From the NCBI GenBank assembly GCA_045639125.1, contig JAZUCL010000011.1, positions 58,720-122,719 of the forward strand: 64,000 bases of DNA, written 5' to 3'. Origin of the DNA: Eubacteriales bacterium (GTDB lineage: Bacteria > Bacillota > Clostridia > Oscillospirales > QAMX01). Below, piece after piece: positions 6,456 to 23,723 of the stretch (positions are counted from its first letter, which is position 1; each line of letters starts with the position of its first letter). The translations under genes were made by a program, and so were the position numbers. The notes beneath the pieces are model-generated. The model was not told the origin of the DNA and did not search any database. It worked only from the letters and a program-made list of their open reading frames with translations.

Positions 6456-6929
6456 TCAACTTATCCTCTCTGCATGCTGGTTATCGCTTGCTAACCAAAC
6501 TCCTAAAGTGTCATCATAATGTTTTTCGTGTCCCGGAAGATATCTACCGAATTTCACTATGATATTAGGACATCTCTTTAGAATGTCGATTTTATCTGTA
6601 ATTTCTTCCTTATAATACCCTGTATATACTACAACTGTATCTTGTGACTTTTCTCTGAATCTCTTTATGAACAACATTAAATCTTCCCAAGAATCCATCG
6701 GTTCAAGTCCACCACAGACCACTGCTGTTGTCAATTTATTATTAAGGTATCTATTTATAATCTCATCTACAGAAACCTCAATATTTTTTGCAGTGGCGAG
6801 TACGCCATTTTGACATACTCGCATACCACATTCTTTTTCACATTTCCAACTACATCTTGGAAAGCCTATTAGCATAGATGGCTTATTGTAATTAGAAAAA
6901 TCTTCATCAACTATTGCTTTAATTATCAT
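6456..6929 (-). CDS. nrdG: Class III RNR activase (radical SAM)
   Basis: CxxxC..C cluster, GGLEP and YTGY motifs; directly follows nrdD. Confidence 0.85.
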   Translation of the reverse strand: MIIKAIVDEDFSNYNKPSMLIGFPRCSWKCEKECGMRVCQNGVLATAKNIEVSVDEIINRYLNNKLTTAVVCGGLEPMDSWEDLMLFIKRFREKSQDTVVVYTGYYKEEITDKIDILKRCPNIIVKFGRYLPGHEKHYDDTLGVWLASDNQHAERIS

Positions 6930-8984: not shown

Positions 8985-9077
8985 TTATTCTCCACTATTG
9001 TCATCTTTTGACACAAAAACATACATAAAAGCAGTCGTAAAAAGTGCGCCAAACATCATTGCTAATATATGACCCAC
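8985..9077 (-). CDS. Small membrane protein (30 aa)
   Basis: GTG start after AGGAG: MGHILAMMFGALFTTAFMYVFVSKDDNSGE. Confidence 0.45.
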   Translation of the reverse strand: MGHILAMMFGALFTTAFMYVFVSKDDNSGE

Positions 9078-9087
9078 ACTCTTTCTC

Positions 9088-9525: not shown

Positions 9526-9535
9526 AAACTCCTCC

Positions 9536-10087: not shown

Positions 10088-10786
10088 TCAATTCCCTCCT
10101 TTTGGGTTTCCACAACACATTTTACCCTCTTTACATTTGCCACGGATACAACTCGCTCCGGCTTTTGCAAAGATATTAGGTGCAATTTCTTTACAAATAT
10201 CAAGCATTATATCTGCCATTTGTCTTATTTCCCACTGAGCGCGATTACAACAACGTTCTTCAAAAAAATGCAACAAACTTCTGATATTCATAGTCATTAT
10301 AAGTTTTGTTTCGGTGCCATTTGGAAGAGCAAATCTTGCGTCCTCATTAGGAATGCCGTTTTCTACTGCACAATCGTAAAAATCTTGAATGTGCTTCATT
10401 AATTCACCATATTTTATTCTTAAAAAATCATCACTCGCAATTGTTGGCGGGGTAATATATTCAAATTGCCCCTCTTTTACATATCTTTGAGATTTCTGCG
10501 AATAAGATGCAATTCTATGTCTAACCAACTGATGTGAACAAGAGCGAGATATTCCCTCAATTCCAAAAGTAAAAGTACAATGTTCTAATGGGCTCTGATG
10601 CCCCAAATCTGTAAGTTTTTTAATAAAAACTTCAATCTTTTCTGTTGTCAACCCATTCATTAGTGTTTCAATATCGCTTAAGCTGTAGCAAAGTTTAGCT
10701 GCACTTGCTATAACCTTCTCTGGCTCAGGCGTATGGGTAATTAAAGTTACTTTCAATTTCTCACTTCCAATCTTCATAATTTTCAT
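10088..10786 (-). CDS. thyX: Flavin-dependent thymidylate synthase (true start probably TTG near 10756)
   Basis: RHRIASYSQKSQRY ThyX motif, EDARFALP, AQWEIR. Confidence 0.95.
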   Translation of the reverse strand: MKIMKIGSEKLKVTLITHTPEPEKVIASAAKLCYSLSDIETLMNGLTTEKIEVFIKKLTDLGHQSPLEHCTFTFGIEGISRSCSHQLVRHRIASYSQKSQRYVKEGQFEYITPPTIASDDFLRIKYGELMKHIQDFYDCAVENGIPNEDARFALPNGTETKLIMTMNIRSLLHFFEERCCNRAQWEIRQMADIMLDICKEIAPNIFAKAGASCIRGKCKEGKMCCGNPKGGN

Positions 10787-11003
10787 AGTCCCATTCTTTA
10801 GACTTAATGCCGTGGTATTTTAAGGCACAATCATCAGAGCAGAATTTATTGTCTTCATTGTCTGTGTAATATTCGTAGTCTTCTCTTAATTTCTTGTCAC
10901 ATTGTTCGCAACGCCCCCGTATTTTGGGTTCGGGGGCGTTAGGACACCGACTTGAACAAGGACTACTATGACACACTTCGCACATTATCGCCCCTCCATT
11001 CAA
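10761..11003 (-). CDS. Cys-rich small phage protein
   Basis: Multiple CxxC; likely start at MCEVC. Confidence 0.6.
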   Translation of the reverse strand: MNGGAIMCEVCHSSPCSSRCPNAPEPKIRGRCEQCDKKLREDYEYYTDNEDNKFCSDDCALKYHGIKSKEWDYENYEDWK

Positions 11004-11382
11004 AACCTTTATTGTTGTTGTCCATACAACCGTTACAAGGTGTGTTCTCTAACACATCGCAAGTGCCAAATTTAAAATCTTGACAAGACCAAACCCAGTC
11101 ATGATGACATCTTTTGTCGTCCCAGCAACCTTTGCCCTCACAATATTTTTCGCATTCTTTACCTTTGCACTCGACATTGTTTTTGCAGTAATGGCAAATA
11201 TTTTCAGACTTCATAACGAGTTCCATAAAGTCTTCTTTAAGTTTTAAGTATTGATTTTCATAATAATCCGAGCCAACTACTAATGACAGCTTTTCTATTT
11301 CGCTTTTTACAATCGCTGGATAAAACCCTTTATTAATTAAATTTTTCTTGAGTTTATCGGCATCTATAATATTCATTATCAT
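10966..11382 (-). CDS. Cys-rich phage hypothetical protein
   Basis: GAGGAGG SD; N-terminal IDADKL motif common in phage proteins. Confidence 0.65.
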   Translation of the reverse strand: MIMNIIDADKLKKNLINKGFYPAIVKSEIEKLSLVVGSDYYENQYLKLKEDFMELVMKSENICHYCKNNVECKGKECEKYCEGKGCWDDKRCHHDWVWSCQDFKFGTCDVLENTPCNGCMDNNNKGFEWRGDNVRSVS

Positions 11383-11403
11383 CCTCCTCTTGAAAGACTT
11401 GTT

Positions 11404-12072
11404 CTATTGACAATTTTTACCCCACTGCTCTGCCATAGCCTTTGCAATGCCCGGAAATGTTTTACTTGCGTCTTTTGCATTATGAGCAACACCTCTGCTT
11501 CCACCTTTCCCCCTAGCGAACCCACCTGTATTACTTGGTAGGTATGGTTTGTATTCATCTACAATTTTTGTTGGCTTCAGTGGTAATAAACCCTTTTGCC
11601 ATAATAAAGTGCGTTTTGAAAAAGGGTGCCCATATTCAAATGGTTGCACCACCTGACTTTCTTTCGGCAATCCAACGCATTTTAATGGGGTAGGATTTTC
11701 TACGCATATTCTTTCGCAATCAGCATTTAAAAACTTCATAAAAAATTCTTTTGCTTCCAATGCCTTCTTTAATCTATTCTCATCAATATTACCAGCCGTT
11801 GGATACATAAATCTTGCACCAGCCTTGCTCATATATGTACATGGTGGATGTGCAATAAGCAAATCCCATTTCCCATCAATAGTATGTTCAGCACCGTCAG
11901 ATGTTTTAAACTTGCAATTACCATTTATTAAAGGTAGTACATCTCCTTGTATGTGCCATTCTGGATGTCCACCAGAACATTCAAGAATATCACAAGAATA
12001 TGCTTCCCAACCTATTTCTCTAAAAGCCTTACATACTGTTTGGCTCTCTTCACATGCTACTAATAACTTCAT
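11404..12072 (-). CDS. Short phage C5-cytosine DNA methyltransferase-like protein
   Basis: LVACEES (motif I-like), HPPCT (catalytic PC), VENP (motif VI), KRT.LW, SKTFPGIAKAMAEQW. Confidence 0.8.
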   Translation of the reverse strand: MKLLVACEESQTVCKAFREIGWEAYSCDILECSGGHPEWHIQGDVLPLINGNCKFKTSDGAEHTIDGKWDLLIAHPPCTYMSKAGARFMYPTAGNIDENRLKKALEAKEFFMKFLNADCERICVENPTPLKCVGLPKESQVVQPFEYGHPFSKRTLLWQKGLLPLKPTKIVDEYKPYLPSNTGGFARGKGGSRGVAHNAKDASKTFPGIAKAMAEQWGKNCQ

Positions 12073-12197
12073 TACTACATAGGAGAAATGTACATTTAAC
12101 GGAATTCCAACTCGTTCCTCCTATTCTTTTGTAGGTGTTTGCAACCACCTAATTATTTTTATTTTTCTCCTTAAAAGCGTGGTTTTCATTGGCATTT

Positions 12198-12434
12198 TTA
12201 GTCGCAAATCACAAGCAAAGTGCCACTTCCCATAGCACCATTGCTTCGGGTCGAAATGGTTGGTGCCGCATCATTCACTTCTGTATCTATACAAACAACT
12301 TTTAATCCATTTCTTTTGCTTCTTAATGTAGGAACATAATTTTTGTAATATCTAATACCATCAAATCCTTGCGTATCATCAATACAAATAGCTATTCCAC
12401 CACAAGCAGAGTTTAATCTACTTGTGGATTGATA
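12198..12434 (-). CDS. -1 frameshift extension of the multispecific C5 MTase (78 aa, two TRD-like modules)
   Basis: Open -1 frame that begins exactly at the slippery heptamer: YQSTSRLNSACGGIAICIDDTQGFDGIRYYKNYVPTLRSKRNGLKVVCIDTEVNDAAPTISTRSNGAMGSGTLLVICD. Confidence 0.7.
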   Translation of the reverse strand, partial: YQSTSRLNSACGGIAICIDDTQGFDGIRYYKNYVPTLRSKRNGLKVVCIDTEVNDAAPTISTRSNGAMGSGTLLVICD

Positions 12435-14023
12435 AAATTTTCATCACGGCATACATATGTATCATCATACTGAGCTTTATATAGATGTTCAGCTAACAAT
12501 TCACAACAGTCCGTAATAATACCATTACCTGCTTGTTTATATAAATGAGTATCTACTACACCTATATTTCTGGCTTTATCGCAATCTTCAAATGTCAGCC
12601 CCATCAGTTTATAACATTCACGAGGAGTCAGTTTTCTAATTCTGAGGTCTTCACGGATACAATTTTTAATTGCAGATGTCAATAATGCATTACTCAACCC
12701 ATCTTTGCGAGTCTTAAATTGGTCTTCTCTTTTTGCACCATGTTTGTTATAGTTTCTGTCTTTGGGTCTTATTTGACCAGATTCAACAATCTTTGGCATA
12801 CGATTACCACCACTGCAAGTATCCAAAGTTGGAGACAAACACTCACTATTGTATACTCTACCGGCTTGAGGATTCGGTTCTCTTTCTGTTCCGTAAATCT
12901 GTCCAACTTGTTCCAAAACAGCAGTGCCCTCAGCCTTTCGATTTGATACGCCCCTATCTTCTCTTGAAGTTATGCAATTTGCATACTCAATCATTCGAGT
13001 ATCATTTACAGATTTATCAATACCAGATATGATTTTTACTGGGTCTTTATAGTCAGTCGCTCTTAAACCTTGTGATAGATCTTCAGCATCAAGAACTCTC
13101 ACTCTGTCCTGTACATTTTTATCTGGGTTTAATGAACCAGCTACCTTTATATCCGTTCCTTTGCTCTCTGAAAATAACTTAAATTTTCTTGTTGCAATAT
13201 CACTCAGGTAATACTTTTCGTCAACTACATCTTCAAGAATATCTTTTAGTCTTATGCCAGTATCAAAAGGAATGGGGAATGTGTATTTACCAGTATCAAT
13301 ATCTTTTCTAATAGAAATTACAAACACTCTTTCCCTATTTTGAGGAACACCACAATCTTTGCCATTGATTATAGACCAATACGAATTAAAACCGAGTTCA
13401 TCCAATACTTCAATAAGATTGTTGAAATATTCAGCGAATTTTTTGCTTGCAAGATTCTTTACATTTTCAAACATTATGTATTTTGGGAGAGTGTTATTTT
13501 CCTTTGCTTTCTTCAATAACTTGATATTCTCCCACAGCAAACTGCTTCTTGTACCACTATCGGGAGACAAGCCTTTCATTTTGCCCGCAACGGAAATATC
13601 AGTACAAGGGAATGAACAAGTCCAAAAGTCAGCATAAGGCAATTCTTCCATTCTGCTAATATCACCTAAATTTTTAGTTAGCTTACAAGCCAACCAATAT
13701 TTCTCAATGTCGTTAGTCTTTCTTTTTGCCAACTTAAACCAATCAAAATGCTTGTCTTTTTCTGGCTCATATCCCAAGTTAATATCTGTGAGATACTGTG
13801 CCATTTCATCTCTTGTAGGATAATTCTCATATGCTTCCACCATCTCATTGGTGAGACCACAATGTATTGCAGCATATGAAAGCACAGCCTCTTTGTTAAT
13901 ATCCGAAGTATTTAATACTTCAATATCAAATAAACCAGAGTTTTCAAAACCTCTTTCTTGACAACCTATACCAGAAAATAGTATATTGGCTGTCAGTTTT
14001 ACTTTTTCAACATTTGTATTCAA
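12413..14023 (-). CDS. Multispecific phage C5-cytosine DNA methyltransferase
   Basis: LFSGIG, SFPCTD, FENVKNL, PQNRERVF, RKLTPREC, YKQAGN motifs; long variable region with about four TRD-like repeats. Confidence 0.93.
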   Translation of the reverse strand: MNTNVEKVKLTANILFSGIGCQERGFENSGLFDIEVLNTSDINKEAVLSYAAIHCGLTNEMVEAYENYPTRDEMAQYLTDINLGYEPEKDKHFDWFKLAKRKTNDIEKYWLACKLTKNLGDISRMEELPYADFWTCSFPCTDISVAGKMKGLSPDSGTRSSLLWENIKLLKKAKENNTLPKYIMFENVKNLASKKFAEYFNNLIEVLDELGFNSYWSIINGKDCGVPQNRERVFVISIRKDIDTGKYTFPIPFDTGIRLKDILEDVVDEKYYLSDIATRKFKLFSESKGTDIKVAGSLNPDKNVQDRVRVLDAEDLSQGLRATDYKDPVKIISGIDKSVNDTRMIEYANCITSREDRGVSNRKAEGTAVLEQVGQIYGTEREPNPQAGRVYNSECLSPTLDTCSGGNRMPKIVESGQIRPKDRNYNKHGAKREDQFKTRKDGLSNALLTSAIKNCIREDLRIRKLTPRECYKLMGLTFEDCDKARNIGVVDTHLYKQAGNGIITDCCELLAEHLYKAQYDDTYVCRDENFINPQVD

Positions 14024-14118
14024 ATTCTCTTTCGGAGTAAACTATAGTTTTATGTCCGGACAAACTTCCTTACTCCTTTCAAATTTTTATGTACACTTTA
14101 TTATTCTCTAAAAGTATT

Positions 14119-14907
14119 TTAAAAAAGTCCCCATTCTGCAAACTTTTCAAATCCACCAACAGATACAATATATTCTCTTGCTTTTTCAACAATTTCAGAA
14201 TAAGGTACACCATCAATTTCAGTATCGCCAATAGCACAACATAAACTTACTGGTCTACCGATTTCTTGTGCTTTAAGGAAAGCATAAATATTTACGGATA
14301 CATCTGCCTTTGATAAATCTTTGCCATGAAGACCGCCACCTGTTACACTATCAGCCATATCAGAGCCGAGTTTTCTGTTAGTAGCACCAGTGTCTACATT
14401 TGTACCGCCTGTCCAATAACCAAGAGGATTAATAGCAGCATTAGGACAAATCTTTCTCACATCATCTTCTTCTGCGTTGCTCTGGCAAATTATGAGATTG
14501 TCACCATTCAAGATATACTTACCATCAGTTGGGAAATCTTTGTAAATATCTCTTGCTATCTGTGCCATAACTTTCTGCTCAGATGTAAGCGGTACACCCT
14601 TAAAGATACCATTATCTCCACACTTAAACCCATTGGTCTGATTATTTGCAAGATGCACGTCTTGTTTTACGCATTTGTAGTCAACCATAATTGAGTTATC
14701 TTTTGTAATTCTGTGTACTGCTTGGCACACATCAACTGCATCAACTTCAACTGAAGATTCAGCAATGATATGGCATACACTGTGTCCAATCAGTACCTCA
14801 ACCGCAATCTTTGGATTTTCTTCCATTTTATAAGCAAGGTCTACGATAGCACCTGCTATTCTGTCGGCAACCTTATCAGGATGTGCCGGATTTACCTTTT
14901 CTATCAT
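14119..14907 (-). CDS. metK: Compact phage-type S-adenosylmethionine synthetase
   Basis: EKVNPAHPDK, GDNG, DTGATNRKL, GGGLHGKDLSKAD; 262 aa. Confidence 0.9.
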   Translation of the reverse strand: MIEKVNPAHPDKVADRIAGAIVDLAYKMEENPKIAVEVLIGHSVCHIIAESSVEVDAVDVCQAVHRITKDNSIMVDYKCVKQDVHLANNQTNGFKCGDNGIFKGVPLTSEQKVMAQIARDIYKDFPTDGKYILNGDNLIICQSNAEEDDVRKICPNAAINPLGYWTGGTNVDTGATNRKLGSDMADSVTGGGLHGKDLSKADVSVNIYAFLKAQEIGRPVSLCCAIGDTEIDGVPYSEIVEKAREYIVSVGGFEKFAEWGLF

Positions 14908-14947
14908 TAAAATTCCTCCTATTTTGTCAATAAAACGAGCGTTTCAT

Positions 14948-15100
14948 TTAGCTGTCTAAAAACTCATCTTCCAAAACTACCACGTTGCATTCGCTTGTAT
15001 GAGCGGTGCAACGGTCAATGCCAATAATACCTTCAGCAAAACAAGGTTCCCAAATAGCATCTTCATCAAACTCACTTTTGCAACGACCAAGCATTTTATG
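14948..15100 (-). pseudogene. Displaced alternative C-terminus of the metallophosphoesterase
   Basis: HKMLGRCKSEFDEDAIWEPCFAEGIIGIDRCTAHTSECNVVVLEDEFLDS* aligns by eye to the last ~50 aa of 15640..16413. Confidence 0.8.
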
Positions 15101-15647
15101 CTATAACTCCATACCGCTCAAACAAACATCTTTGAGGAGCGGATTGACCAAAATATTTAGCTTCAGCTTGTAGGCGCATTTTAATCGCATCTTCTTTATC
15201 AACAAATATACCCAAATATTTTACTTTATCATCAACACATATTTGAGCAATCCACTTGTGTTTTGTATTGCTAAAATAAACGCCTGTAACACCAGAAGTG
15301 TTAGTTGATATAACGCCATTTCGATTTAAAATGTTTTGTTTCTTGGTAGCATTTCGTAAATTTCCTTTACGATTATCCAATTTATTACGATTGATATGGT
15401 CTACTAACTCATATTTGAAATCTGTAATAAATCTATGCATATATATCCACTTATCATCGGGAGTTTTTATTTTCATATATCCATTACTAAAATCTTTATA
15501 CCAACAATATTCTCTAATCTTATCGTAATCCTCTAAATCAAAATAAAACTCTTCACTGCAATTCGAAGCAATACCAATGCCGAAATTCTCGCTTAATTTA
15601 TATGTGTTATATTTCTTACGCACATTTAATGCTTTATCTTTAATCAT
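15096..15647 (-). CDS. HNH homing endonuclease with AP2-like DNA-binding domain
   Basis: MHRFI, VDHINRNKLDNRKGNLR, NTSGVTGV, W.AQI...YLG.F motifs. Confidence 0.92.
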   Translation of the reverse strand: MIKDKALNVRKKYNTYKLSENFGIGIASNCSEEFYFDLEDYDKIREYCWYKDFSNGYMKIKTPDDKWIYMHRFITDFKYELVDHINRNKLDNRKGNLRNATKKQNILNRNGVISTNTSGVTGVYFSNTKHKWIAQICVDDKVKYLGIFVDKEDAIKMRLQAEAKYFGQSAPQRCLFERYGVIA

Positions 15648-16413
15648 TTATAAAATTATCCTCTAATACTAAAATATTCACTTTGCCAGTATATGCGGTA
15701 CAAGCATCTACTCCAATATAATCTTTTCCATAGTAAATATCAAATTTAGCATCCTCTCCAAATTCAGAAATGCCTTGGTGCTGACTATAAGCATAGCTGG
15801 TATGAAAATGACCGAACACTATCGTTTTGCCTGTTTTGTTTAAGCCTTTCGATGCTATTTCAAATGGATTTCCCCACATTGCTTCATCCCATTCTTTTTC
15901 TGTTACGTTTCGCCAATCAGGATTAAAGTGATATTCTCTGTCTCTTGTGTAATATTTTGGATAATCGTCTTCTGCTGTTATGGGTATCCAACTGTGTACA
16001 AAGATATATTTTTTAGTTTCAAAGTAATTTACTAATAACTCCCTATATTTTGCTAACCTATCCCAAGTCATACAACAACATTCAGCAAAACTTCTTCTAT
16101 AGACCACACCTCCAAGGTCTTCGATTGTCTTAACAGTGCCGTTGGAAACATCGTGAGAATACGGAAATTCTCTCATACAACATTCTTCAAGTAAACTATC
16201 GTGATTGCCTTTTACGAGTATTTTTCTTTCAAGAGACATAAGAAGGTGTAATACCTCTTCGCTTTCGTTCCCGCGATCAAAACAATCGCCACAAACAATC
16301 AACCAATGTTCTTCGTTATTTGGGTCAAACCCAACTTCGTCAAGTGCTTTCTTCAATGGTGTATAAAAACTATGTATATCCGAAGTTACAAAAAATTTAG
16401 GTATCTTAATCAC
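15640..16413 (-). CDS. Calcineurin-like metallophosphoesterase
   Basis: SDIH, GDCFDRG, GNHD, FVH, GHFH motifs. Confidence 0.9.
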   Translation of the reverse strand: MIKIPKFFVTSDIHSFYTPLKKALDEVGFDPNNEEHWLIVCGDCFDRGNESEEVLHLLMSLERKILVKGNHDSLLEECCMREFPYSHDVSNGTVKTIEDLGGVVYRRSFAECCCMTWDRLAKYRELLVNYFETKKYIFVHSWIPITAEDDYPKYYTRDREYHFNPDWRNVTEKEWDEAMWGNPFEIASKGLNKTGKTIVFGHFHTSYAYSQHQGISEFGEDAKFDIYYGKDYIGVDACTAYTGKVNILVLEDNFIND

Positions 16414-16488
16414 CCCTTTTCACTTTAAAACTCAAATTCTATCGTGATTTTTAGGCTCCGAAACGCCCTATTTAAGCCATTCTTGAAA

Positions 16489-17334
16489 TCAATAATTTGT
16501 AATTAAAACCTCAATATCTTTACTTCGGTCAATTTTATGATAATTACAATTTACATAATCTCCATTTAAATAATGAATATGGTACTTGTCCTTCCACCTA
16601 TCCAAAAACGGATTGTCATATTTCAGATTGTTAGACAACGCCCATCTTGTGCCTTGTGCGTCTAACTTATCCAACAACTCAAGTAATTTCTTTTCGTGTT
16701 CTTCTGTCCAACCTTCAAATCCTCGTTTACCATCGTTGTAGTTACCAACTGATGCAAAATAAGGTGGGTCAAAATACAACAAATCATTTTCGTCAAAGTC
16801 AGAGTAATCAATATCAGTAAAACTTTTTGATGAGAAAACAATATCCGTACTTATATTTTTCTTCATTGCATATAAGTCTTCTCTCTGCCTATCCGAAAAA
16901 TAACTTCTGTTTTTACCAAAACTACTATTGTATTGGTGATTATTGTTGAATCTAAACTGATGATTAAATGAATGGCACATCAATGTATAAAGAGTAGTCC
17001 AATCATTCTTCCCCGCATTATAGTCATCACGAAGTTTTTCAAATCCTTCTTTGTTAGTTTTACTAAGTGAATACTCGGCGATTATATTTTCTATTTTCTT
17101 AACAACTGCATTTGTATCTTCTGTTGCAAGCCCTTCAAAGATGCTTGATACATAAGGATTTATGTCGTTATATAGATAATGTTCTGCTTTGGTATTTATT
17201 AAGACTGTTCCTGAACCACCAAATACATCAACAAACATGCTGATTTTATCCGGGAATAAAGGAATTATCTGTCCTATAAGCTTATACTTGTTTCCTATAT
17301 AATTTATAGGCGATTTTATGTATTTATTTTTCAA
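16489..17334 (-). CDS. Dam-family (alpha class) N6-adenine DNA methyltransferase
   Basis: YIGNK, DVFGGSG, DPPY and E.LITNY motifs. Confidence 0.92.
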   Translation of the reverse strand: MKNKYIKSPINYIGNKYKLIGQIIPLFPDKISMFVDVFGGSGTVLINTKAEHYLYNDINPYVSSIFEGLATEDTNAVVKKIENIIAEYSLSKTNKEGFEKLRDDYNAGKNDWTTLYTLMCHSFNHQFRFNNNHQYNSSFGKNRSYFSDRQREDLYAMKKNISTDIVFSSKSFTDIDYSDFDENDLLYFDPPYFASVGNYNDGKRGFEGWTEEHEKKLLELLDKLDAQGTRWALSNNLKYDNPFLDRWKDKYHIHYLNGDYVNCNYHKIDRSKDIEVLITNY

Positions 17335-17460
17335 TGTATCTTAGGAGTAAACACTGTGTTTTCGGTATACCAAACCTCTACTCCTTTCATTTAATATGAC
17401 ATTTGCAACTGCCACACTATATTATTCTCCATAAATTTCTCGATAAAAGAGAAATTCTAT

Positions 17461-17730
17461 CTATATTTCAAACATGTCCCCAAACATCTTCATAACACCA
17501 GTAACTTCTGGTGTTCCCTTTTCGTGCAAAGGACATCTTTCAAACATCTTACCTTCGGGAATTTCTTTTCCTTGTTTACACTCCATCTTTTTGATTCCGT
17601 CTGTACTACAATGTTTGCAAGTCAGACAACTTTTCAAGTTGTAGTTTTTGTTACAAGTTTCTTCATGCTTCAATACATCTTCTTCGATTCCTGTAAAATC
17701 ACAATATTCACATCTGTATATCGGTTTCAT
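17461..17730 (-). CDS. Zn-finger phage protein
   Basis: YRCEYC...HE..C and CLTCKHC. Confidence 0.65.
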   Translation of the reverse strand: MKPIYRCEYCDFTGIEEDVLKHEETCNKNYNLKSCLTCKHCSTDGIKKMECKQGKEIPEGKMFERCPLHEKGTPEVTGVMKMFGDMFEI

Positions 17731-17745
17731 CTCAAATTACCTCCA

Positions 17746-18651
17746 TTAATGTGCTTTCTTGTCGGCTTCGTGCAATCTCATAACCTTTTCAAAAAGTTCA
17801 TTACCCCAAAGTTTCTTATATTTGTTCATAGTCTTTTCACCGTTCTCAGCATCTTTCTCCCAAAAATAAGGTTGCATATGAAGATTGATAATAGTTGAAA
17901 CTTCTAATGGATCAACATCGTCAAGATAAATGTAAAACAGACTATCATATGCCCCTACGCAATGATGCTGATAATAGTGGGCTATATCTGTCTCTTCGCC
18001 CTTTGAATTGATAAAGGACTTTGTGTATGGTTTACCACAATCATGCATCATACCAGCACACAGCAGTGTTCTATCCTCTTCTAGTGATTTGCCGACAGTC
18101 GCACAATGCTCTCCCAAAGTCATACTGTGATGTGGATTATCCTGATTGAATTTCATATGGTCAGCAATCCAAAATCCTACAATATTGGTTTCGTATTCGT
18201 CACGCTCAATTATTATAGAGTCCCAACCTTCAAAGAAATATGGCGTGTTCCAGTTTTTATACATTCTCTCAACAACTTCTACTGGAATAGTTCTTTCTCT
18301 TGATTCATTTCTTTTACAACACTCTTCAAAAGGAACCGCAATTATCACACAATTTTTATAGCAAGGAATATTTTTGAGTTCTGATAAAAACGCCCTGCGT
18401 CTTTTAGAGTTAATATTTGTGGCATCGTAAATCACACTTTCACCATTTGCAAGGTGTTCTTTAATTCTTTTATGTAATAATTTGAATACTTCTTCATTAC
18501 TGGTCTGTGAGTTTATATCGCCAGTCAACTCTTCTCTAATAGCATCAGAACTACATAACTTTGCATTAGTTCTATCGGCTAATTCTTTGGCATAGGTAGA
18601 CTTACCTGAGCCGGGCAAGCCTACCATCATTGTAAAAGTCGGTTTATTCAT
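17746..18651 (-). CDS. Polynucleotide kinase (AAA_33) fused to HD phosphohydrolase
   Basis: GLPGSGKST, DATN, then H...HDCGKP...H.AD; ATG at 18651 has an SD. Confidence 0.9.
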   Translation of the reverse strand: MNKPTFTMMVGLPGSGKSTYAKELADRTNAKLCSSDAIREELTGDINSQTSNEEVFKLLHKRIKEHLANGESVIYDATNINSKRRRAFLSELKNIPCYKNCVIIAVPFEECCKRNESRERTIPVEVVERMYKNWNTPYFFEGWDSIIIERDEYETNIVGFWIADHMKFNQDNPHHSMTLGEHCATVGKSLEEDRTLLCAGMMHDCGKPYTKSFINSKGEETDIAHYYQHHCVGAYDSLFYIYLDDVDPLEVSTIINLHMQPYFWEKDAENGEKTMNKYKKLWGNELFEKVMRLHEADKKAH

Positions 18652-19936
18652 TATCTTTTGTCTCCATTTCACATAACTTCATATACCTGCCGGACTTACT
18701 TTTAACTAAGTTATATTCCTTGCCATAATATTTTTCTCTCACATACGCTTTAATTCTGATTGGAACGTTATCTTTTACCCAAACCATAAATTCTTTTTTA
18801 TCGTTTTTGGGAGCCTTATCAAAATAATCTTTAATTTCTAACTCAGTATTGTGAATGTACTTGAATACAACATTTGCAGTTTTCAAAACTCTATCTTTAT
18901 AAGCTGTAGGAACTTTACTTATCATATCGTCAAATGTTCCGTCGGCAATATTCTTAATAACTAAGTTAACGGAAGAAATCTCAGATAAAACACGATGCAT
19001 ATTTACATAGTCATTATATTTGATCTTAACTTTATAACCATCAATGTTGACAACAAAACCTTCAGCTTCGTTTGATTTTTTATCATCAAGTTCTTTGATA
19101 ACCTCGTCCAACGTTTTGTCAAAAACTGTTGTGGACGGAATGCTATACTTATCGGCAAACTCTTTGATAGTTTTGTAAGAATACTCTTCGCCAGTCACAG
19201 AGTTTCTAATGCCTATGAGATATAAACCTTCTTGCTCTTTAGAATAAACTACGACATGGGCATCTTTCATTGATATGTACTCAAATATAAATGTGAGCAA
19301 AGGATTGTCCATAACAAGGTCTATGTAGCCAGCCCTGTTAAATAACATTTTATATCCGTCTTTTAATCTCCAAGAAAATTCAGGATTAAGAGATGTGCTA
19401 CCGCACATTACAATACTGTCGTTGTAATATCTTACGGCTTGCATCGAGCCGTCCAATTTGTCAGAAAATTCAACACATTTTGCATCCTTTATTCTTTTTG
19501 AAATATTTTCAATACTTGTTTCTTCGCATTCATTGAGGTTTCTGAACTTCTTGAACGGAGTTATCACTAATCGATTTTCTTTGATGTCAATTACAACACT
19601 ACGACATTCTAAGTAAAAGCCGTCGTACTTGTCCCAAAATTCATCGGGTGTTACATCGTCTTCGCCACCAAACACATCTGCATAGTTGCCATATCTAATA
19701 AGAAGCAATCCGTTATGCTCGATTAATTGTAATGGCTTAATCAGTTCTGTGTATTCGGGATTATCGAGTTTTTCAACCCAATACTCCAAACAGGTTGTTT
19801 TACTTGTGTTATAATCCCACAATCTATTTGTTGAGAACATTGATATGTATGCATTTTTTATTTCAATAAATTTATTTAATACCGGATTCCAACTCAGTGT
19901 TATCACTCCTTTGACCAATCTAATGCTTGCCCACAT
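18644..19936 (-). CDS. T4 Rnl1-like RNA ligase (likely start near 19897)
   Basis: ECRSVV, KKFRN, KLDGS (motif I), FEY, EGFVV, KVKIK. Confidence 0.9.
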   Translation of the reverse strand: MWASIRLVKGVITLSWNPVLNKFIEIKNAYISMFSTNRLWDYNTSKTTCLEYWVEKLDNPEYTELIKPLQLIEHNGLLLIRYGNYADVFGGEDDVTPDEFWDKYDGFYLECRSVVIDIKENRLVITPFKKFRNLNECEETSIENISKRIKDAKCVEFSDKLDGSMQAVRYYNDSIVMCGSTSLNPEFSWRLKDGYKMLFNRAGYIDLVMDNPLLTFIFEYISMKDAHVVVYSKEQEGLYLIGIRNSVTGEEYSYKTIKEFADKYSIPSTTVFDKTLDEVIKELDDKKSNEAEGFVVNIDGYKVKIKYNDYVNMHRVLSEISSVNLVIKNIADGTFDDMISKVPTAYKDRVLKTANVVFKYIHNTELEIKDYFDKAPKNDKKEFMVWVKDNVPIRIKAYVREKYYGKEYNLVKSKSGRYMKLCEMETKDNE

Positions 19937-20142
19937 TTAGGACAGTATTCTAATTGTCCACAAAAAGAATGTCTACATATATAACATTCTCCATAATCTC
20001 CATTGTGATTTACAACTTTAGCTGGGATTTGTTTTCTCATGGCACTCAACGCAGTTTTAACATACTCGCATTGCTTACCATTGTGCTGTGTTGTATATCT
20101 TTTTTGGAGACTTTCAAAGTGTTTTATTGATTCTTTTAGCAT
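19903..20142 (-). CDS. Phage Zn-ribbon protein
   Basis: KQIP...C..C...YCPKCGQALDWS pattern; AGGAGG SD. Confidence 0.7.
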   Translation of the reverse strand: MLKESIKHFESLQKRYTTQHNGKQCEYVKTALSAMRKQIPAKVVNHNGDYGECYICRHSFCGQLEYCPKCGQALDWSKE

Positions 20143-20177
20143 AAAAACCTCCTAATTTTGCCAATGAAATGTGTATT

Positions 20178-20447
20178 CTATCTGCTCACTAATTCAACCC
20201 TATATCCTAATTTATCTTCGATTTCTTTTAATGTCATTTTCTTTATGTCTGTCCCTAAGAGTTTCCAACCGCTAACATTCATAATGTCGTTAATGTCCTT
20301 AAATGCATTTGCAGCCCAAGGTTTACCGTTAGAATCAAAGAACCCTTTTTCAACAGAGTATCGCATATCTTTGGCAATATATGTTTTACCTGTCTTCTCC
20401 GCTTCGTTCATCATATTCAATGTTTTCATAATATCACCAACTTTCAA
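20178..20447 (-). CDS. Phage hypothetical protein
   Basis: C-terminal KKMTLKEIEDKLGYRVELV typical of phage small proteins. Confidence 0.7.
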   Translation of the reverse strand: MKVGDIMKTLNMMNEAEKTGKTYIAKDMRYSVEKGFFDSNGKPWAANAFKDINDIMNVSGWKLLGTDIKKMTLKEIEDKLGYRVELVSR

Positions 20448-20631
20448 TTCTAAATAATATATTTCCCAACCATCTTGGGACTCTTACTCCAAAGAAGGTT
20501 GGTTTGTAGTGTGGACATTTTTCACATTTGTCACTCATACAGTTACCATACCCACAAGGGTTGCTCATAAAGACCATAAATATAACCTCGTTAACACATA
20601 TTTGTATGTTCGTCCATAGGACTAGTATCAA
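20434..20631 (-). CDS. Small Cys-rich phage protein (true start probably internal)
   Basis: Fills the gap in the operon; GAGG precedes MVFMSNPC. Confidence 0.45.
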   Translation of the reverse strand: MILVLWTNIQICVNEVIFMVFMSNPCGYGNCMSDKCEKCPHYKPTFFGVRVPRWLGNILFRIESW

Positions 20632-20779
20632 TTTTCCTTACGCCCGGCTTATGATAATCTGAAAGAATATAGCTTGCACATCCACCTTTGTTGTCTATCG
20701 CAACATTTTTAAGTAAACATCCGTTGCTAAAACCATAATACTTACACTTTTCATTTGCACAGGTTATTCTATGTCTCAT
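20591..20779 (-). CDS. Small Cys-rich phage protein
   Basis: C....C.Y....C...I...G.C pattern; GAGGTG SD. Confidence 0.55.
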   Translation of the reverse strand: MRHRITCANEKCKYYGFSNGCLLKNVAIDNKGGCASYILSDYHKPGVRKIDTSPMDEHTNMC

Positions 20780-20813
20780 ATTTACACCTCAATTTCACCA
20801 TAAAATAAATGTT

Positions 20814-21017
20814 TTAAATCTTTTTCCAATACATAACTTCATTTGTAATGGGTCTACCTATAGGCAATAAGAAATCTTCTCCGTCCCACCTTACAGAAGT
20901 TTTTAGTGTCCCATCATCCCATGTTGAAAATGGGTTGGTGTGAACAACTTTTACATTATAAAAACCGCATTCGTTTGGTTCAACCTTGTCGAAATTGTTC
21001 CAACTATTCTCTGTCAT
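20814..21017 (-). CDS. DUF551-like phage protein
   Basis: W....P..G.Y.V ... V.YW pattern; AGGAG SD. Confidence 0.55.
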   Translation of the reverse strand: MTENSWNNFDKVEPNECGFYNVKVVHTNPFSTWDDGTLKTSVRWDGEDFLLPIGRPITNEVMYWKKI

Positions 21018-21044
21018 ATCTGATTCTCCTAATAAAATGAGTGT

Positions 21045-21800
21045 TTAATTAAGTCTTTGTGTTGTAATTTTAATAGCATTTTCGTTGACATCGCATCTGA
21101 GGTAGTTTCTGCCAAGTTCCTTCGCAACAACACAACTTGTCCCGCTACCGCAAAAGAAATCTGCAACAAGTCCACTTTTAGGGCAACTACTGTCTATTAT
21201 CTTATATAAGAGTTCCTTTGGCTTTTGAGTTGCGTAACCCACCCTCTCGGTTTTATCATTCTGTCCAAGTATATTAATTTTCCACACATCATCCATAATC
21301 TTACCTCGACTGTCATAATACTTTTCTTTCTCATAACCTCTTGGTGCTGTCGGAGAATATGCTTGTCTTATGTACTGACTATCTTCATTAAAATAATAGT
21401 CATCTGTTTTACTATATCGGAATATGGTATCGTGGCGTTTGCCAAAATCTTTCTTCTTGCGGGGGGCGGAATTATACCACCATATGATTTCGTTTCTAAA
21501 ATTATCGTATCCAAAAATGTTATCTAAACAGATTTTAATATAGTGAGATAAATTGTAATCACATTGAATATAAATTAACCCAGTATCTTTAAGGACTCTA
21601 AACATCTCTGAAAGTCTTGGTTTATACCATTCTAACGCTTCTTGTGGTGTCCCTAAATTATCGTTGTAATCTTTGAATTTTTTACCAGTGTTGTATAATA
21701 TATCGCAATATATCAAATCAACACTTTTATTTGGAAGTCTTTTCAAAAGTGTTAAGTTATCTTCGCAAAACAATTTATTTATATATTCTATTTGATTCAC
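21045..21800 (-). CDS. Beta-class N4/N6 DNA methyltransferase
   Basis: N-terminal motif IV variant DILY, TQKP, and C-terminal motif I DFFCGSGT. Confidence 0.88.
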   Translation of the reverse strand: MNQIEYINKLFCEDNLTLLKRLPNKSVDLIYCDILYNTGKKFKDYNDNLGTPQEALEWYKPRLSEMFRVLKDTGLIYIQCDYNLSHYIKICLDNIFGYDNFRNEIIWWYNSAPRKKKDFGKRHDTIFRYSKTDDYYFNEDSQYIRQAYSPTAPRGYEKEKYYDSRGKIMDDVWKINILGQNDKTERVGYATQKPKELLYKIIDSSCPKSGLVADFFCGSGTSCVVAKELGRNYLRCDVNENAIKITTQRLN

Positions 21801-21856
21801 CTCCTGTTATTAAGTCACCCACACTATATTATTCTCTATATATTTGCAAAAAAATA

Positions 21857-21921: not shown

Positions 21922-23589
21922 ATGAATATTCATACTATTAGAGAAAAAATGAAAATGCACTCAATATACGAAATACCTATGCGGGTTACTTTTTATGCTC
22001 GCGTTTCTTCTGAAAAAGATGAACAGCTTAATTCTTTAGATAATCAAATAGCATACTATACAGACTTAATTAAAAATAACAAGCATTGGGAATATGTGCC
22101 CGGATATATAGACGAGGGCTTATCTGGAATCTCCACCTTAAAACGAGAAAATTTTAATCATATGATATCGGATGCAAAAAACGGAATGTTTGATTTTGTG
22201 ATCACGAAGGAAATATCAAGGTTTGCACGCAACACCCTAGATAGCATCAGGTATACCCGAGAATTACTGGGTTGCGGCGTTGGCGTATTTTTTCAAAACG
22301 ACAACATCAACACTCTTGATGAAGATTCAGAACTTAGACTCTCTATTATGTCTTCCATCGCACAGGACGAGCTTAGAAAGCTATCTTCGCGTATTAAATT
22401 TGGTCATCAACAGGCGATAAAAAATCATGTTGTGCTTGGCAATAGCAGAATTTTTGGTTATGATAAAAAAGATAAAAAGTTAGTTATAAACGAAGAAGAA
22501 GCGAAAATGGTACGCGAGCTTTTTGAGTTATATGCAACTGACCAATACAGCATGAAACAAATTGAAAACATATTTTGGGAAAGAGGATATAGAAACCGAA
22601 ATGGTAATAAGATAGCTCACACCACAATGTCAAACACAATCTCTAATCCCAAATACAAAGGCTATTATGTAGGCAATAAGGTAAAGGTTGTTGATATGTT
22701 CACAAAAAAACAACACTTCCTTCCACCGGAAGAATGGGTTATGTTTAAAGATGAAACGGGCGATATAGTACCCGCTATTGTCAGCGAAGAACTCTGGAAT
22801 GCAGCTAATGTTATTTTAGAAAGGCGCAGCAACGATGTGAAAAACAAGCATAACATATGTAATCACGAAAATCTCTTGACAGGAAAATTATTTTGTACCC
22901 ATTGCGGAAATGCGTATTATCGACGCGAAAGCATGGATAAAAAGGGCAATAAAAACAGTAAGTGGATTTGTAGTGGCAAAATAAAAAACGGTGCAGAGTC
23001 CTGCCCGTCATTAGCAATTTTTGAAAATGAAATTAAACCGATTCTTTTTGATGTATTTAATGAAACCTCTCCAGTAGCCGAGGATTTGGTTGACTCCTAT
23101 ATCGAAATGTATAAAACAATCGATGCAAGCGGCGAGATAATTAAAGATATGGAAAAATTAAAATTAAAAATTGACCACGAACAAAAAAAGAAACGCAAAA
23201 TCCTTGATTATAATCTGAACGGCGATTTGTCCGATGAAGAATATATTCAGATAAACAAAGAATGTAATCATATTATCAGTGAACTTGAAAAAGATCTTTT
23301 TGATTTACAAGAACAACAAAATTCCAAAGACGATTTTAAGAAACATATTGACGAAATCAAGCAAACGCTACTTGTTGCAAAAAGAGATGCTGCGAATGGG
23401 ATCATATCAAGAGAGTTTGTAAATAAGTATATAGATAAAATTTTCGTAACTCCCGAGGATGGATCTCTTAAACTTGAAATTAAGATATTTACCGGAAAAA
23501 CTTGTGAAAAACATCTTTTAAGTCTTAGAAGTCGCTCGGGTCACATTAGTAAGAAAATGATTGAAGCCTACGAAAACGGCATGAAGTAA
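21922..23589 (+). CDS. Large serine recombinase (prophage integrase)
   Basis: YARVS catalytic motif, DEG.SG, SRFARN, recombinase domain, Zn-ribbon C..CG...C...C and coiled coil. Confidence 0.96.
   Translation: MNIHTIREKMKMHSIYEIPMRVTFYARVSSEKDEQLNSLDNQIAYYTDLIKNNKHWEYVPGYIDEGLSGISTLKRENFNHMISDAKNGMFDFVITKEISRFARNTLDSIRYTRELLGCGVGVFFQNDNINTLDEDSELRLSIMSSIAQDELRKLSSRIKFGHQQAIKNHVVLGNSRIFGYDKKDKKLVINEEEAKMVRELFELYATDQYSMKQIENIFWERGYRNRNGNKIAHTTMSNTISNPKYKGYYVGNKVKVVDMFTKKQHFLPPEEWVMFKDETGDIVPAIVSEELWNAANVILERRSNDVKNKHNICNHENLLTGKLFCTHCGNAYYRRESMDKKGNKNSKWICSGKIKNGAESCPSLAIFENEIKPILFDVFNETSPVAEDLVDSYIEMYKTIDASGEIIKDMEKLKLKIDHEQKKKRKILDYNLNGDLSDEEYIQINKECNHIISELEKDLFDLQEQQNSKDDFKKHIDEIKQTLLVAKRDAANGIISREFVNKYIDKIFVTPEDGSLKLEIKIFTGKTCEKHLLSLRSRSGHISKKMIEAYENGMK
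23551..23589 (+). other. Putative attR: 3' end of a host alpha/beta-type SASP gene fused in frame to the integrase
   Basis: KKMIEAYENGMK* matches the clostridial SASP C-terminus that follows GSVGGxMV. Confidence 0.7.
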
Positions 23590-23606
23590 ATCTTCATGTC
23601 ATGAAA

Positions 23607-23640
23607 GAAAACTCCGACAGAAATATCTGTCGGAGTTTTC
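23607..23640. terminator. Intrinsic terminator between integrase/SASP end and pth
   Basis: GAAAACTCCGACAGA / TCTGTCGGAGTTTTC perfect stem. Confidence 0.9.
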
Positions 23641-23723
23641 ACTTTTATTCATTATAATAACAAGAAACCTTGACCTATACTCTTTAAGTATCACAAGCGT
23701 TAAAATAAGGTAAGTTTTATACC

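Follow-up and report, generated by a model that had tools for sequence, protein, structure and literature searches.

A conserved palindrome at accessory-gene junctions coincides with points of gene reassortment in apparently SPbeta-like phages

Introduction

What is the role of an 18-bp imperfect palindrome that recurs between the accessory genes of a prophage? The element lies in the window, the 64,000-nucleotide stretch of an Eubacteriales genome that we analyzed, in what looks like a large, SPbeta-like prophage. The original prediction, made from the sequence alone, described eight copies at gene junctions and proposed an integron-like cassette array or an operator array. We found no published description of the element in the literature.

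Results

On the coding strand of the window prophage, the core of the element has the consensus WTRRAA-N6-TTTYAW. Six of the listed sites fit it exactly and two (12172-12189 and 21032-21049) are decayed; sequences and coordinates were confirmed. The sites, the arm that they divide and one further match are as follows:

11390..11407, minus strand: junction site ATAGAA-CAAGTC-TTTCAA, exact consensus match; its left-arm TAG is the stop of a 222-aa DNA methyltransferase-family gene (11404-12072; PHROG 757), and the SD GAGGAGG comes straight after
12172..12189, minus strand: decayed site ATGAAA-ACCACG-CTTTTA, near-match, behind the stop codon that ends the out-of-frame Dcm tail
14930..14947, minus strand: junction site ATGAAA-CGCTCG-TTTTAT, exact consensus match, adjoining the TAA of a 48-aa ORF and upstream of the SD of a MetK-like gene (14119-14907)
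16425..16442, minus strand: junction site ATAGAA-TTTGAG-TTTTAA with outer arms TCACG/AGTGA, exact consensus match, upstream of the GTG start of a metallophosphatase gene (15640-16413)
17443..17460, minus strand: junction site ATAGAA-TTTCTC-TTTTAT, exact consensus match, adjoining the TAG of an 89-aa ORF (17461-17730) and just upstream of a promoter-like element (17418-17430)
20164..20181, minus strand: junction site ATAGAA-TACACA-TTTCAT, exact consensus match; TAG is the stop of ORF 20178-20447
20800..20817, minus strand: junction site TTAAAA-CATTTA-TTTTAT, exact consensus match; TAA is the stop of ORF 20814-21017
21032..21049, minus strand: near-match ATTAAA-CACTCA-TTTTAT, decayed copy; TAA is the stop of an N4/N6 methyltransferase gene (21045-21800)
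11404..21800, minus strand: accessory-gene arm divided by the sites (Pfam, PHROGs)
6578..6595, plus strand: pattern match in an NrdG-like ORF, antisense

The element occupies the gap between the stop codon of the upstream accessory gene and the next SD, and this stop is often embedded in the left arm, whose TRR covers the three stop codons and is frequently the actual stop. As predicted, six sites overlap or abut a stop codon (inside the left arm at 11390, 20164, 20800 and 21032; abutting at 14930 and 17443), and every site is followed by an SD or start codon or, in the case of 17443, by a promoter-like element. Most sites lie within operons, where only 0-12 nt separate the right arm from the start of the SD, too little for a promoter. 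The units of the arm are the methyltransferase-family gene; a split Dcm with the MetK-like gene; HNH with metallophosphatase; Dam; a PNK/HD kinase with an RNA ligase; five small ORFs; and the N4/N6 methyltransferase. Sites cluster among small accessory genes and avoid core blocks (dut-nrd-thyX; yorF-yorL and nrdI-E-F in SPbeta). The original observation that dut-nrd-thyX junctions lack sites held throughout this block of the window; the sole match there, 6578-6595, is taken as chance and outside the system.

With its flanks, the element consists of ~11-bp arms and a 6-bp centre, 28 bp in total (11-6-11). The extended form is (TCaCg)ATAGAA-N6-TTTYAW-cGtGA in the window prophage and TcTaaATAAAA-N6-TTTTATa.AgA in Bacillus phages. 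Strong conservation covers only 5-6 bases per arm, and the outer arms are weak, most so in the L001 family. From sequence, this layout reads as the 28-bp geometry of Xer/dif sites, in line with the tyrosine-recombinase core geometry originally suggested.

Since the left arm often supplies the stop codon and the genome is AT-rich, a stop codon with an A-rich stretch, followed by a T-rich pre-SD stretch, might mimic a palindrome. Controls refuted this reading, which we consider to have a negligible chance of being correct. The window contains nine matches (at seven positions) against 2.02 expected, and at least nine occurred in 1 of 100 shuffles. Across the 1.52-Mb genome, the loose pattern matched 77 times, ~40 of them within ~105 kb of prophage DNA, while all 11 matches to the strict pattern ATAGAA-N6-TTTYAW fell in prophage DNA; seven of these 11 lie outside the range of the original prediction and were used as an out-of-sample set. 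Despite identical SD usage and ~13-fold more DNA, the host accounts for 37 of the 77 loose and none of the 11 strict matches. Within the prophage, 20 of 28 motif positions are intergenic, compared to 14.3% of the DNA (binomial p 1.2e-11); GC content is 0.324 in intergenic and 0.354 in coding DNA, and thus composition is not the cause of the intergenic excess. The sites are therefore junction-specific and enriched over the AT-rich background, a point that the original prediction had wanted tested. In addition, the TAG at C2 sites does not serve as the stop codon, the arms keep a fixed 6-bp spacing, and the symmetry reaches outward.

A de novo search in distant gut relatives, which also argues against compositional mimicry, returned TGAAA-N6-TTTCA as the top palindromic dyad (observed versus expected: 6 versus 0.1 in L001, 3 versus 0.3 in L019 and 4 versus 0.3 in L028). 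SPbeta itself carries the form ATAAAA-N6-TTTTAW. The loose pattern occurred 14 times in L001 (1.81 expected) and 26 times in SPbeta 100-134 kb (2.10 expected), counts matched in 0 of 100 shuffles; of the 34 plus-strand matches in SPbeta, 27 lie within the early 65-134 kb. Together, these results establish the element as real, enriched, located at junctions and conserved in three lineages.

As the element is directional (ATAGAA in the left arm, nGnGA in the right flank) and always occupies the gap from stop to SD on the coding strand, it might act in RNA, the AU-rich inverted repeat serving as a processing site, a 5′ stabilizer, or a signal that couples or represses translation. Pairing of ATAGAA with TTTTAT is possible with one G-U pair. 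However, predicted hairpins over 19 sites were weak or absent (MFE 0 to -7.4 kcal/mol, mean z -0.79), ATAGAA and TTTCAW form an A-C mismatch, and the arms lack covariation between lineages or sites, the stem sequence rather than its pairing being conserved. No Rfam family matched the element. As crossovers at DNA sites would also be left unexplained, we regard an RNA-level role as improbable.

Such crossovers are evident in relatives, where breakpoints of gene gain and loss had been predicted to fall at the sites. The identical 18-mer ATGAAAATTAAATTTCAA was found 39 times; its 2 upstream and 6 downstream contexts are paired in 10 combinations, and the flanks are unrelated right to the site edge. 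An unbiased 12-mer four-gamete scan of the L001 family detected 25 of 43 in-motif 12-mers versus 23 of 32,460 outside, with 8 of 10 junction groups on the motif. In nine Bacillus SPbeta-type phages, the corresponding values were 7 of 89 and 18 of 16,600, with three of four groups on the motif. In two independent sets of relatives, then, the motif is the exact point at which flanking genes reassort, as predicted. Mosaic blocks of the L001 family also end at many motif-less junctions (e.g., 2001, 2291, 2651, 3998, 4421, 4926, 7620, 8311, 13954), and thus mosaicism is possible without the motif.

Most exchange replaces a cassette within its slot rather than reordering cassettes; 3 of 56 upstream classes have a second centre. 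Relative to L001, L004 lacks a 5,976-bp segment and has the left flank of L001 site 2900 fused to site 8876 from its centre rightward. This event is a between-slot exchange with crossover at the arm, and such events are rare. In the L001 family, the centre shows higher conservation than its flanks (0.0045-0.0088 versus 0.014-0.029); this is not the case in the Bacillus group (0.067-0.077 versus 0.048-0.074).

Mapped onto the window, contigs of closer relatives have breaks at 14941, 16438, 17461, 20157/20183, 20817 and 21026/21032, at or beside at least six sites, in one contig comparison at 85% likeness in which some joint sides are 20-30 nt. Homology of one contig (X2 record 11) ends at 14941, within the 14930 site, and that of another (X4 record 23) at 16438, within the 16425 site. 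In one relative, 17461 is fused to 17746 and the 89-aa gene is missing. Among the matches listed, joints or pieces also occur at 20142 near the 20164 site and at 20785-20793 near the 20800 site, and those near the 21032 site have short sides of 20-25 nt. At the decayed 12172 site, relatives' contigs (three in X1, two in X2 and one in X4, among the matches listed) have one base fewer at 12187, which regains the canonical ATAAAA-CCACGC-TTTTAA.

The original prediction had suggested looking for a tyrosine recombinase in the rest of the prophage, and an Xer-like protein of 317 aa is encoded outside the window at C11:23779-24732, among late genes ~45 kb from the array. It looks catalytically intact; aligned to XerD, it keeps R, HxxRH and Y. 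Homologues are present in G063 (80% identity), G061, G064 and SPbeta (YomM). As YomM has K/A at the positions of the R/H, it may be non-catalytic in SPbeta. The recombinase gene has a site behind it in the window prophage; the G063 homologue has none, and that of G064 has only a one-mismatch site. One other recombinase was considered:

21922..23589, plus strand: large serine recombinase at the prophage end, adjoining host pth (23724-24350)

This protein is the prophage integrase and was rejected as the partner of the junction sites.

Could the arm be a true integron, with attC-like cassettes captured and excised at attI by an integron-type integrase and sharing a common promoter? The short co-oriented cassettes, the inverted-repeat site at each junction, the tyrosine recombinase in the prophage and the rare events, which fit excision between two sites, are all compatible with this idea. 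However, we found no integron integrase (TIGR02249 28.5 bits versus a cut-off of 265), the recombinase gene is not beside the array, and same-slot replacement dominates. Moreover, attC structures span 57-141 bp, while the sites are perfect-geometry palindromes of 18-28 bp without attC structure or a GTTRRRY core. A true integron is thus very unlikely; of the predicted integron-like array, the cassette-junction part is supported and the strict integron is not.

The sites might instead be regulatory or architectural, a possibility that we consider less likely than the linker model discussed below. A dimeric phage protein (an HTH repressor or a non-catalytic MrpR-like fold) would silence, insulate or organize the arm, and recombination would be a by-product: as the only homology between unrelated cassettes, conserved sites would become passive crossover points, as with the PeSLs of T4-type phages (PMC2839356, in the text available). 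Operators typically have palindromic half-sites set at a fixed distance around a variable centre, as seen here, and the Bacillus centres, the potentially non-catalytic YomM and HTH_3 repressor-like genes at the other prophage end fit this picture. So does a promoter-like RGAGAATAAT, 10-14 nt downstream of the palindrome at three window-prophage sites and L001:5326. The available text of one study provides an SPbeta precedent, a dispersed element with a recombinase-fold repressor (PMC10516654). However, intra-operon sites right against the SD are an odd location for an operator, and sites follow accessory junctions rather than transcription-unit starts, avoiding early core genes. A promoter role for the element itself was ruled out by the SD directly after the right arm at most sites. 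In the SPbeta study (PMC10516654), the reported MrpR ChAP-seq peaks lie at promoters with its element, SPBRE, not at junction sites. The SPBRE core AATATGTATA, found in 9 of 10 MrpR target regions, is a different sequence; the original suggestion of SPBRE as the counterpart, and with it an SPBRE operator, was therefore rejected. No MrpR-like similarity was found for a 358-aa recombinase-fold protein.

Discussion

The explanation that we favor, with a probability of roughly 0.55, is that the element serves SPbeta-like phages as a conserved module linker, a directional, dif-like palindrome within which crossovers exchange cassettes. Each genome slot has its own 6-bp centre, and the same slot in different phages has an identical site, such that a crossover within it could link upstream and downstream cassettes in any combination with both genes intact. 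Half-site sequence and spacing are kept across lineages despite variable centres, and we therefore consider it most likely that the arms are bound by a phage protein. The YomM-family, Xer-like tyrosine recombinase is the strongest candidate for this role and would either catalyze exchange or focus it. We infer the binding protein, the chemistry (site-specific or short-homology) and recombination as the selected function. Homologous recombination within 18-21 identical bases could generate the four-gamete patterns without a dedicated protein, and the phage encodes a Sak-type annealing protein. If the linker model is correct, the palindrome may be this phage group's means of shuffling genes.

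Several known systems resemble this arrangement. Like integron attC cassettes, the units are co-oriented, mostly promoterless and separated by inverted-repeat recombination sites; the phage system lacks IntI, attI and attC structure. SPBRE, as described in the available text, is likewise a repeated intergenic element dispersed over SPbeta-type genomes and is bound by tyrosine-recombinase-fold MrpR (PMC10516654), but it is a 15-bp non-palindromic element of ~10 promoters, whereas the junction palindrome is separate, with 34 copies in SPbeta, mostly between stop and SD. PeSLs, according to the portions available, are short conserved elements that lie between non-essential genes in hyperplastic regions of T4-type phages, where they mediate modular shuffling and can yield mini-circles (PMC2839356; PMC4122927). 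They are strong sigma-70 promoters with terminator stem-loops; the junction element is neither, having recombinase-site geometry, weak hairpins and mostly no promoter room.

The difH arms, printed as AGTTATGAAAA and its partner, have the inner ATGAAA...TTTCAA in common with the relatives' motif (PMC5357621). difH/XerH and difSL/XerS also have inverted GAAAA/TTTTC-rich arms, a short centre and a single Xer-like recombinase, here a candidate. However, these are single chromosomal dimer-resolution sites beside the recombinase gene, whereas tens of junction sites, with different outer arms and putative binding and cleavage, occur per phage genome. In the Acinetobacter plasmid dif (pdif) modules, as far as the available text describes them, accessory modules lie between 28-bp Xer-type sites (PMC6449649, PMC13141974, PMC7399989), with 11-bp arms, a 6-bp centre, numerous sites per replicon and modules that recur in varied contexts, as in our phages. 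Whereas pdif sites are carried by plasmids and use host XerC/XerD, the junction sites are in phages, and their putative Xer partner is a single phage-encoded candidate. The phage sites are also co-oriented with transcription and overlap stop codons, and each slot has its own centre and undergoes mostly same-slot replacement.

A directional element at accessory-gene junctions

The right part of a prophage fills the window from position 1 to ~23,700, with a GC content of 0.33-0.38 versus 0.39-0.43 in the host part. The prophage extends to the start of the same contig (C11 of genome G000, on which the window spans 58720-122719) and over C2:~39,700-62,627 of a second contig, for a total of at least 105 kb. 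We call it SPbeta-like because of its architecture: a serine recombinase at one end, a SASP gene at the opposite (left) border, DNA polymerase III alpha, an HU gene, a homologue of the SPbeta recombinase-like protein YomM, and a shared junction element. The primase-helicase and Sak annealing protein also resemble SPbeta content. The label refers to architecture, as an 843-aa ORF of YonO-like size reaches only E 0.038 against SPbeta YonO. All genes between 5660 and 21800 are on the minus strand, and the accessory genes form an arm at 11404-21800.

Genes of the prophage right part
5660-21800 (-), first block: dUTPase, NrdG/NrdD, deoxyribosyltransferase, dNMP kinase, ThyX
5660-21800 (-), then: 222-aa methyltransferase-family protein, split Dcm, MetK-like, HNH, metallophosphatase, Dam
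5660-21800 (-), last: PNK/HD, RNA ligase, five small ORFs, N4/N6 methyltransferase
21922-23589: large serine recombinase, closing the prophage and adjoining host pth

The original prediction had placed eight palindromes at gene junctions between 11390 and 21049. All eight are present, and their proposed consensus, WTRRAA-N6-TTTYAW, is exact in six. Six sites also meet a stop codon as described, which lies inside the left arm at four and abuts the site at two. The site at 12172 had been called degenerate; this is true of the window but not of relatives, in which one base fewer at 12187 makes it canonical.

The window contains nine matches to the consensus versus 2.02 expected, a count reached by 1 of 100 shuffles; with a pattern chosen post hoc, this enrichment is weak alone. 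The strict form ATAGAA-N6-TTTYAW provided a stronger, out-of-sample test. All 11 copies in the 1.52-Mb genome fall in prophage DNA, 7 of them beyond the range first described. Moreover, 20 of 28 motif positions in the prophage are intergenic, compared to 14.3% of its DNA (p 1.2e-11), and the GC contents of intergenic and coding prophage DNA are nearly equal. Enrichment, which had been flagged for checking, was borne out across the prophage. Thirteen loose-pattern sites have the same orientation as the gene that follows, whose start lies 11-41 nt beyond the site, and a fourteenth qualifies if 15640-16413 starts at GTG. As had been noted for the dut-nrd-thyX block, sites keep clear of blocks of core replication and nrd genes and are concentrated among the small accessory genes.

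Within this prophage, the element has a direction and is no true palindrome, with ATAGAA as left arm in 9 of 19 junction sites and TTTYAW, then nGnGA, on the right. Because the left arm is ATAGAA, a 5-mer dyad search of the window prophage saw no strict palindromic enrichment. In the C11 part of the prophage, ATATA-N12-TATAT was the palindromic dyad with the strongest enrichment (6 versus 0.2 expected), with copies at G000:C11:5521, 8819, 13024, 52519 and 59069 (the last at window ~350).

Some arm genes have features of their own. The Dcm gene (12073-14023) is split into a 536-aa ORF that terminates at 12413 and a conserved C-terminal part, which runs on in another frame to ~12200; in relatives' contigs, the differences listed include an insertion of 105 bases at 12284/12285 as well as other replacements in this region. 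A DNA copy of the 222-aa methyltransferase-family gene (11404-12072), 72% identical, lies in locus L031 (G052:C22:10782-11464). In G052, a genome of another family in the same order, the copy sits in a different phage context adjoining an SSB-like gene, with junction sites absent around it. This copy was the sole match in a DNA search of 60 related genomes. The arm had no megablast match in the phage collection, the phage and genome collections contained no close relative of the window, and a metagenome scan found only one (L043, 2.4 kb), with a different upstream gene and no informative site. A further related genome, G063, has only the RNA-ligase region in common with the arm (65%). Among the sequencing runs listed with related sequence, none was an RNA set; all were small-share DNA contig sets.

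The same element in gut-phage relatives and SPbeta

We located relatives via their RNA ligase (~55% protein identity). They lack ATAGAA sites and have TGAAA-N6-TTTCA in the same position, between stop codon and SD. In a de novo search of every 5-mer palindromic dyad with spacers of 0-12, this was the top-ranked dyad in three such loci (L001, L019 and L028), and L001 has 14 loose-pattern matches versus 1.81 expected. Of 34 plus-strand matches in SPbeta, almost all read ATAAAA-N6-TTTTAW, and the early 65-134 kb contain 27. Its last 34 kb contain 26 matches versus 2.10 expected, with the left-arm TAA being the annotated stop codon at 6 of 13 sites. There too, sites spare the core replication and nrd blocks and gather among small accessory genes. 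By these genome comparisons, the junction element is a family trait of SPbeta-like phages.

Alignment of 82 distinct sites from nine Bacillus phages gave the consensus TcTaaATAAAA-N6-TTTTATa.AgA; that of the window prophage is (TCaCg)ATAGAA-N6-TTTYAW-cGtGA. The extended site spans 28 bp, with a 6-bp centre between two dyad-symmetric 11-bp arms, whose outer parts are weak in the L001 family. This 11-6-11 layout agrees with the tyrosine-recombinase core geometry to which the shorter form had been likened. Of the two outer arms, the left one is the less conserved, which we attribute to the final codons of the upstream gene overlapping it.

Flanks reassort at identical sites

To follow flanks across relatives, we used a mosaic family comprising L001-L027 without L018 and L019 (the unrelated L028/L029 being excluded) and many metagenome loci, in which shared blocks are 88-99% identical. 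Block ends match L001 sites 2900, 3101, 4728, 8876 and 14528 within a few bases; many other block ends in this family lie at motif-less junctions. One site, ATGAAAATTAAATTTCAA, was found 39 times, with two upstream and six downstream contexts in 10 combinations and flanks that are unrelated up to the site edge. Control 18-mers within genes had a single context per side.

We also performed a four-gamete scan, in which every 12-mer that was single-copy in at least eight loci was scored for reassortment of its adjacent 40-nt flanks. In the L001 family, 8 of 10 junction groups were on the motif, and 25 of 43 in-motif 12-mers were positive versus 23 of 32,460 outside (p 4.6e-63, descriptive only as the 12-mers overlap and the loci are kin). 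In nine Bacillus SPbeta-type phages, positives were 7 of 89 in-motif versus 18 of 16,600, with three of four groups on the motif. In the comparison of relatives' breakpoints that had been suggested, two phage groups have identical sites with reshuffled flanks.

Exchange between slots (site positions, each with its own 6-bp centre) is rare, with a second centre in 3 of 56 upstream classes. In one such case, the left flank of L001 site 2900 is fused in L004 to the centre and right-hand side of site 8876; 5,976 bp are missing and the crossover lies within the 6-bp left arm. At L050:4379-4396, the recombinant site has the centre TGTTTC, the reverse complement of the right-hand parent's GAAACA (versus L002:4378 and L001:5326). 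Since the orientation of the flanks is kept, this is a minute inversion of the 6-bp centre between palindromic arms.

At the window's own coordinates, we aligned contigs from four gut or bovine-gut metagenome runs at >=85% likeness.

Joints in relatives' contigs, among those listed
14941: homology lost/regained, inside site 14930
16438: homology lost/regained, inside site 16425
17461-17746: joint in a relative without the 89-aa gene
20142, 20157, 20183: homology breaks
20785-20793, 20817: homology breaks
21026, 21032: homology breaks

Several of these joints have sides of only 20-30 nt, and we take those listed as supportive of, rather than decisive for, a role of the sites as junction points.

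Regulatory and integron-like functions

The element could instead be a regulatory site at which recombination is incidental, a reading we regard as less likely than a recombination linker. It is not a promoter, as the SD begins 0-12 nt after most sites and most palindromes are inside transcription units. Nor does it resemble SPBRE, the SPbeta repeated element bound by the recombinase-fold repressor MrpR, whose core, AATATGTATA, occurs in the upstream regions of 9 of 10 MrpR targets. The prophage has no recognizable MrpR homologue, its 358-aa recombinase-fold protein showing no BLASTP similarity to MrpR or YopP. Compared to the promoter-early stem-loops (PeSLs) of T4-type phages, the element has no strong sigma-70-type promoter inside and no terminator stem-loop: both a G+C stem and a T-run are missing, and an MFE of 0 to -7.4 kcal/mol with a mean z of -0.79 makes a stable RNA hairpin unlikely. 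A consensus promoter/terminator scan was uninformative (88 versus 77.6 expected), and an Rfam scan of window 1-24000 gave only two sub-threshold chance matches.

Separate promoter-like elements do occur in the prophage. RGAGAATAATWWW, an RGAGAATAAT element running into a -10-like hexamer TAWART, is found four times on the coding strand versus 0.12 expected, upstream of likely transcription units.

Copies of RGAGAATAATWWW
21825-21837 (-): upstream of the arm's first gene
17418-17430 (-): upstream of Dam
14097-14109 (-): upstream of Dcm
8981-8993 (-): upstream of the nrdD region

Similar copies lie at C2:~53080, C2:~52870 and L001:~5357, and the element is probably the early promoter type of this phage group. 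The Dcm and Dam leaders (14024-14090 and 17335-17400, minus strand) contain a similar SD-sequestering inverted repeat, GAAAGGAGTA ... GTTTACTCC. Both genes start with TTG and are preceded by short ORFs, and the two methyltransferases may be under common translational control. Outside the window, G000:C2:58313-58846 encodes a small sigma-70 family protein with ECF/SigK-like regions 2 and 4 (below family cut-offs); with this protein and the YonO-sized ORF, the prophage may have two ways of redirecting transcription. The 23602-23713 interval that separates the serine recombinase gene from pth contains a terminator with a 15-bp stem (23607-23640), which explains a weak His_leader Rfam match (E 0.63) and is probably close to the boundary of prophage and host.

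The integron-like array that had been proposed failed in the strict sense, as hallmarks of IntI, attC and attI are lacking. The best prophage tyrosine recombinase scores 28.5 bits on the integron integrase model TIGR02249, for which the cut-off is 265. Integron attC sites are long imperfect inverted repeats with a conserved GTTRRRY core, whereas the junction sites are 18-28 bp long, with WTRRAA/TTTYAW arms and no GTTRRRY. Instead of an attI and common promoter by an integrase gene, the recombinase gene is ~45 kb off and the arm has four internal promoter-like elements.

Candidate proteins and mechanism

Half-site sequence and 6-bp spacing are conserved in three lineages while the centre varies, which points to a dimeric DNA-binding protein. 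A tyrosine recombinase had been proposed as something to look for elsewhere in the prophage; two proteins with this fold are encoded there, of which the Xer-like one is the candidate partner of the sites.

Tyrosine-recombinase-fold proteins of the prophage
C11:23779-24732: 317-aa Xer-like tyrosine recombinase, among late genes, ~45 kb from the arm
358-aa recombinase-fold protein: PHROG 216 (E 2.5e-20)

The 317-aa protein aligns to XerD with R, HxxRH and Y kept, and scores below all NCBIfam Xer cut-offs. Homologues are present in three related genomes (G063, 80% identity; G061; G064) and, distantly, in SPbeta as YomM (E 6e-6). A site, TTAGAA-CTTCAA-TTTTAT, lies 2 nt past the stop of the Xer-like gene (G000:C11:24735-24752, outside the window) and is followed by a strong terminator. 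A site does not consistently follow the recombinase gene, as the G064 homologue has a one-mismatch site and the G063 homologue none.

The reading we favor, with a probability of roughly 55%, is that the element is a recombination linker bound by a phage protein. If exchange were site-specific and required matching 6-bp centres, this would explain why same-slot events are frequent and inter-slot events rare, why genomes are stable despite tens of co-oriented sites, and why joints are seamless. Short-homology recombination, in which the phage annealing protein recombines within 18-21 identical bases, accounts for the same patterns. SPbeta YomM is without the RH pair, and in the Bacillus group the centre is under no extra constraint; in the other group, extra constraint is seen. 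We therefore consider true site-specific catalysis at these linkers less likely than not, and about as probable as the regulatory reading.

A broader model, which we put forward tentatively, is that SPbeta-like phages, including SPbeta, encode an addressable cassette exchange. A YomM-family Xer-like recombinase would act at 28-bp dif-like sites overlapping the stop codon of each accessory cassette, with the 6-bp centre serving as slot address. Co-infecting or resident relatives would thereby exchange genes for anti-defence and nucleotide modification at matching positions, with seamless joints.

Relation to known systems

How phages trade single genes so cleanly has long been asked. Linkers between modules were postulated by the modular theory but, to our knowledge, concrete examples are few. 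In both gut-phage relatives of this prophage and SPbeta-type Bacillus phages, a defined 18-28-bp element lies exactly at reassorted junctions. As SPbeta is genetically tractable, the mechanism is directly testable. Since DNA methyltransferases, a SAM-synthetase-like gene and an RNA ligase/kinase repair pair are among the cassettes that the sites bound, the element may govern how fast counter-defence genes spread through temperate Firmicutes phages. It would also offer annotators of this phage group a simple marker of cassette boundaries. In the main texts searched, including the SPbeta overviews PMC8270828 and bioRxiv 2021.11.22.469490 (by term), we found no description of it in SPbeta-type phages; the 1999 SPbeta genome paper could mention it.

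A search for the host dif with a consensus sequence found none. The junction element resembles Xer/dif sites in its ~11-bp dyad arms around a 6-bp centre, as dif-type tyrosine-recombinase sites have two arms around a centre in the same layout (PMC5357621), and the inner arms of difH printed there share ATGAAA...TTTCAA with it. As with dif modules, the same module occurs between sites in different contexts; this is seen in relatives, while for the window the evidence is contig breakpoints only. Like PeSLs, the element is found at breakpoints of modular shuffling in variable regions. The closest known systems are the dif modules of Acinetobacter plasmids and the PeSLs of T4-type phages. Addressable exchange, if true, would be a phage counterpart of dif modules and integrons.
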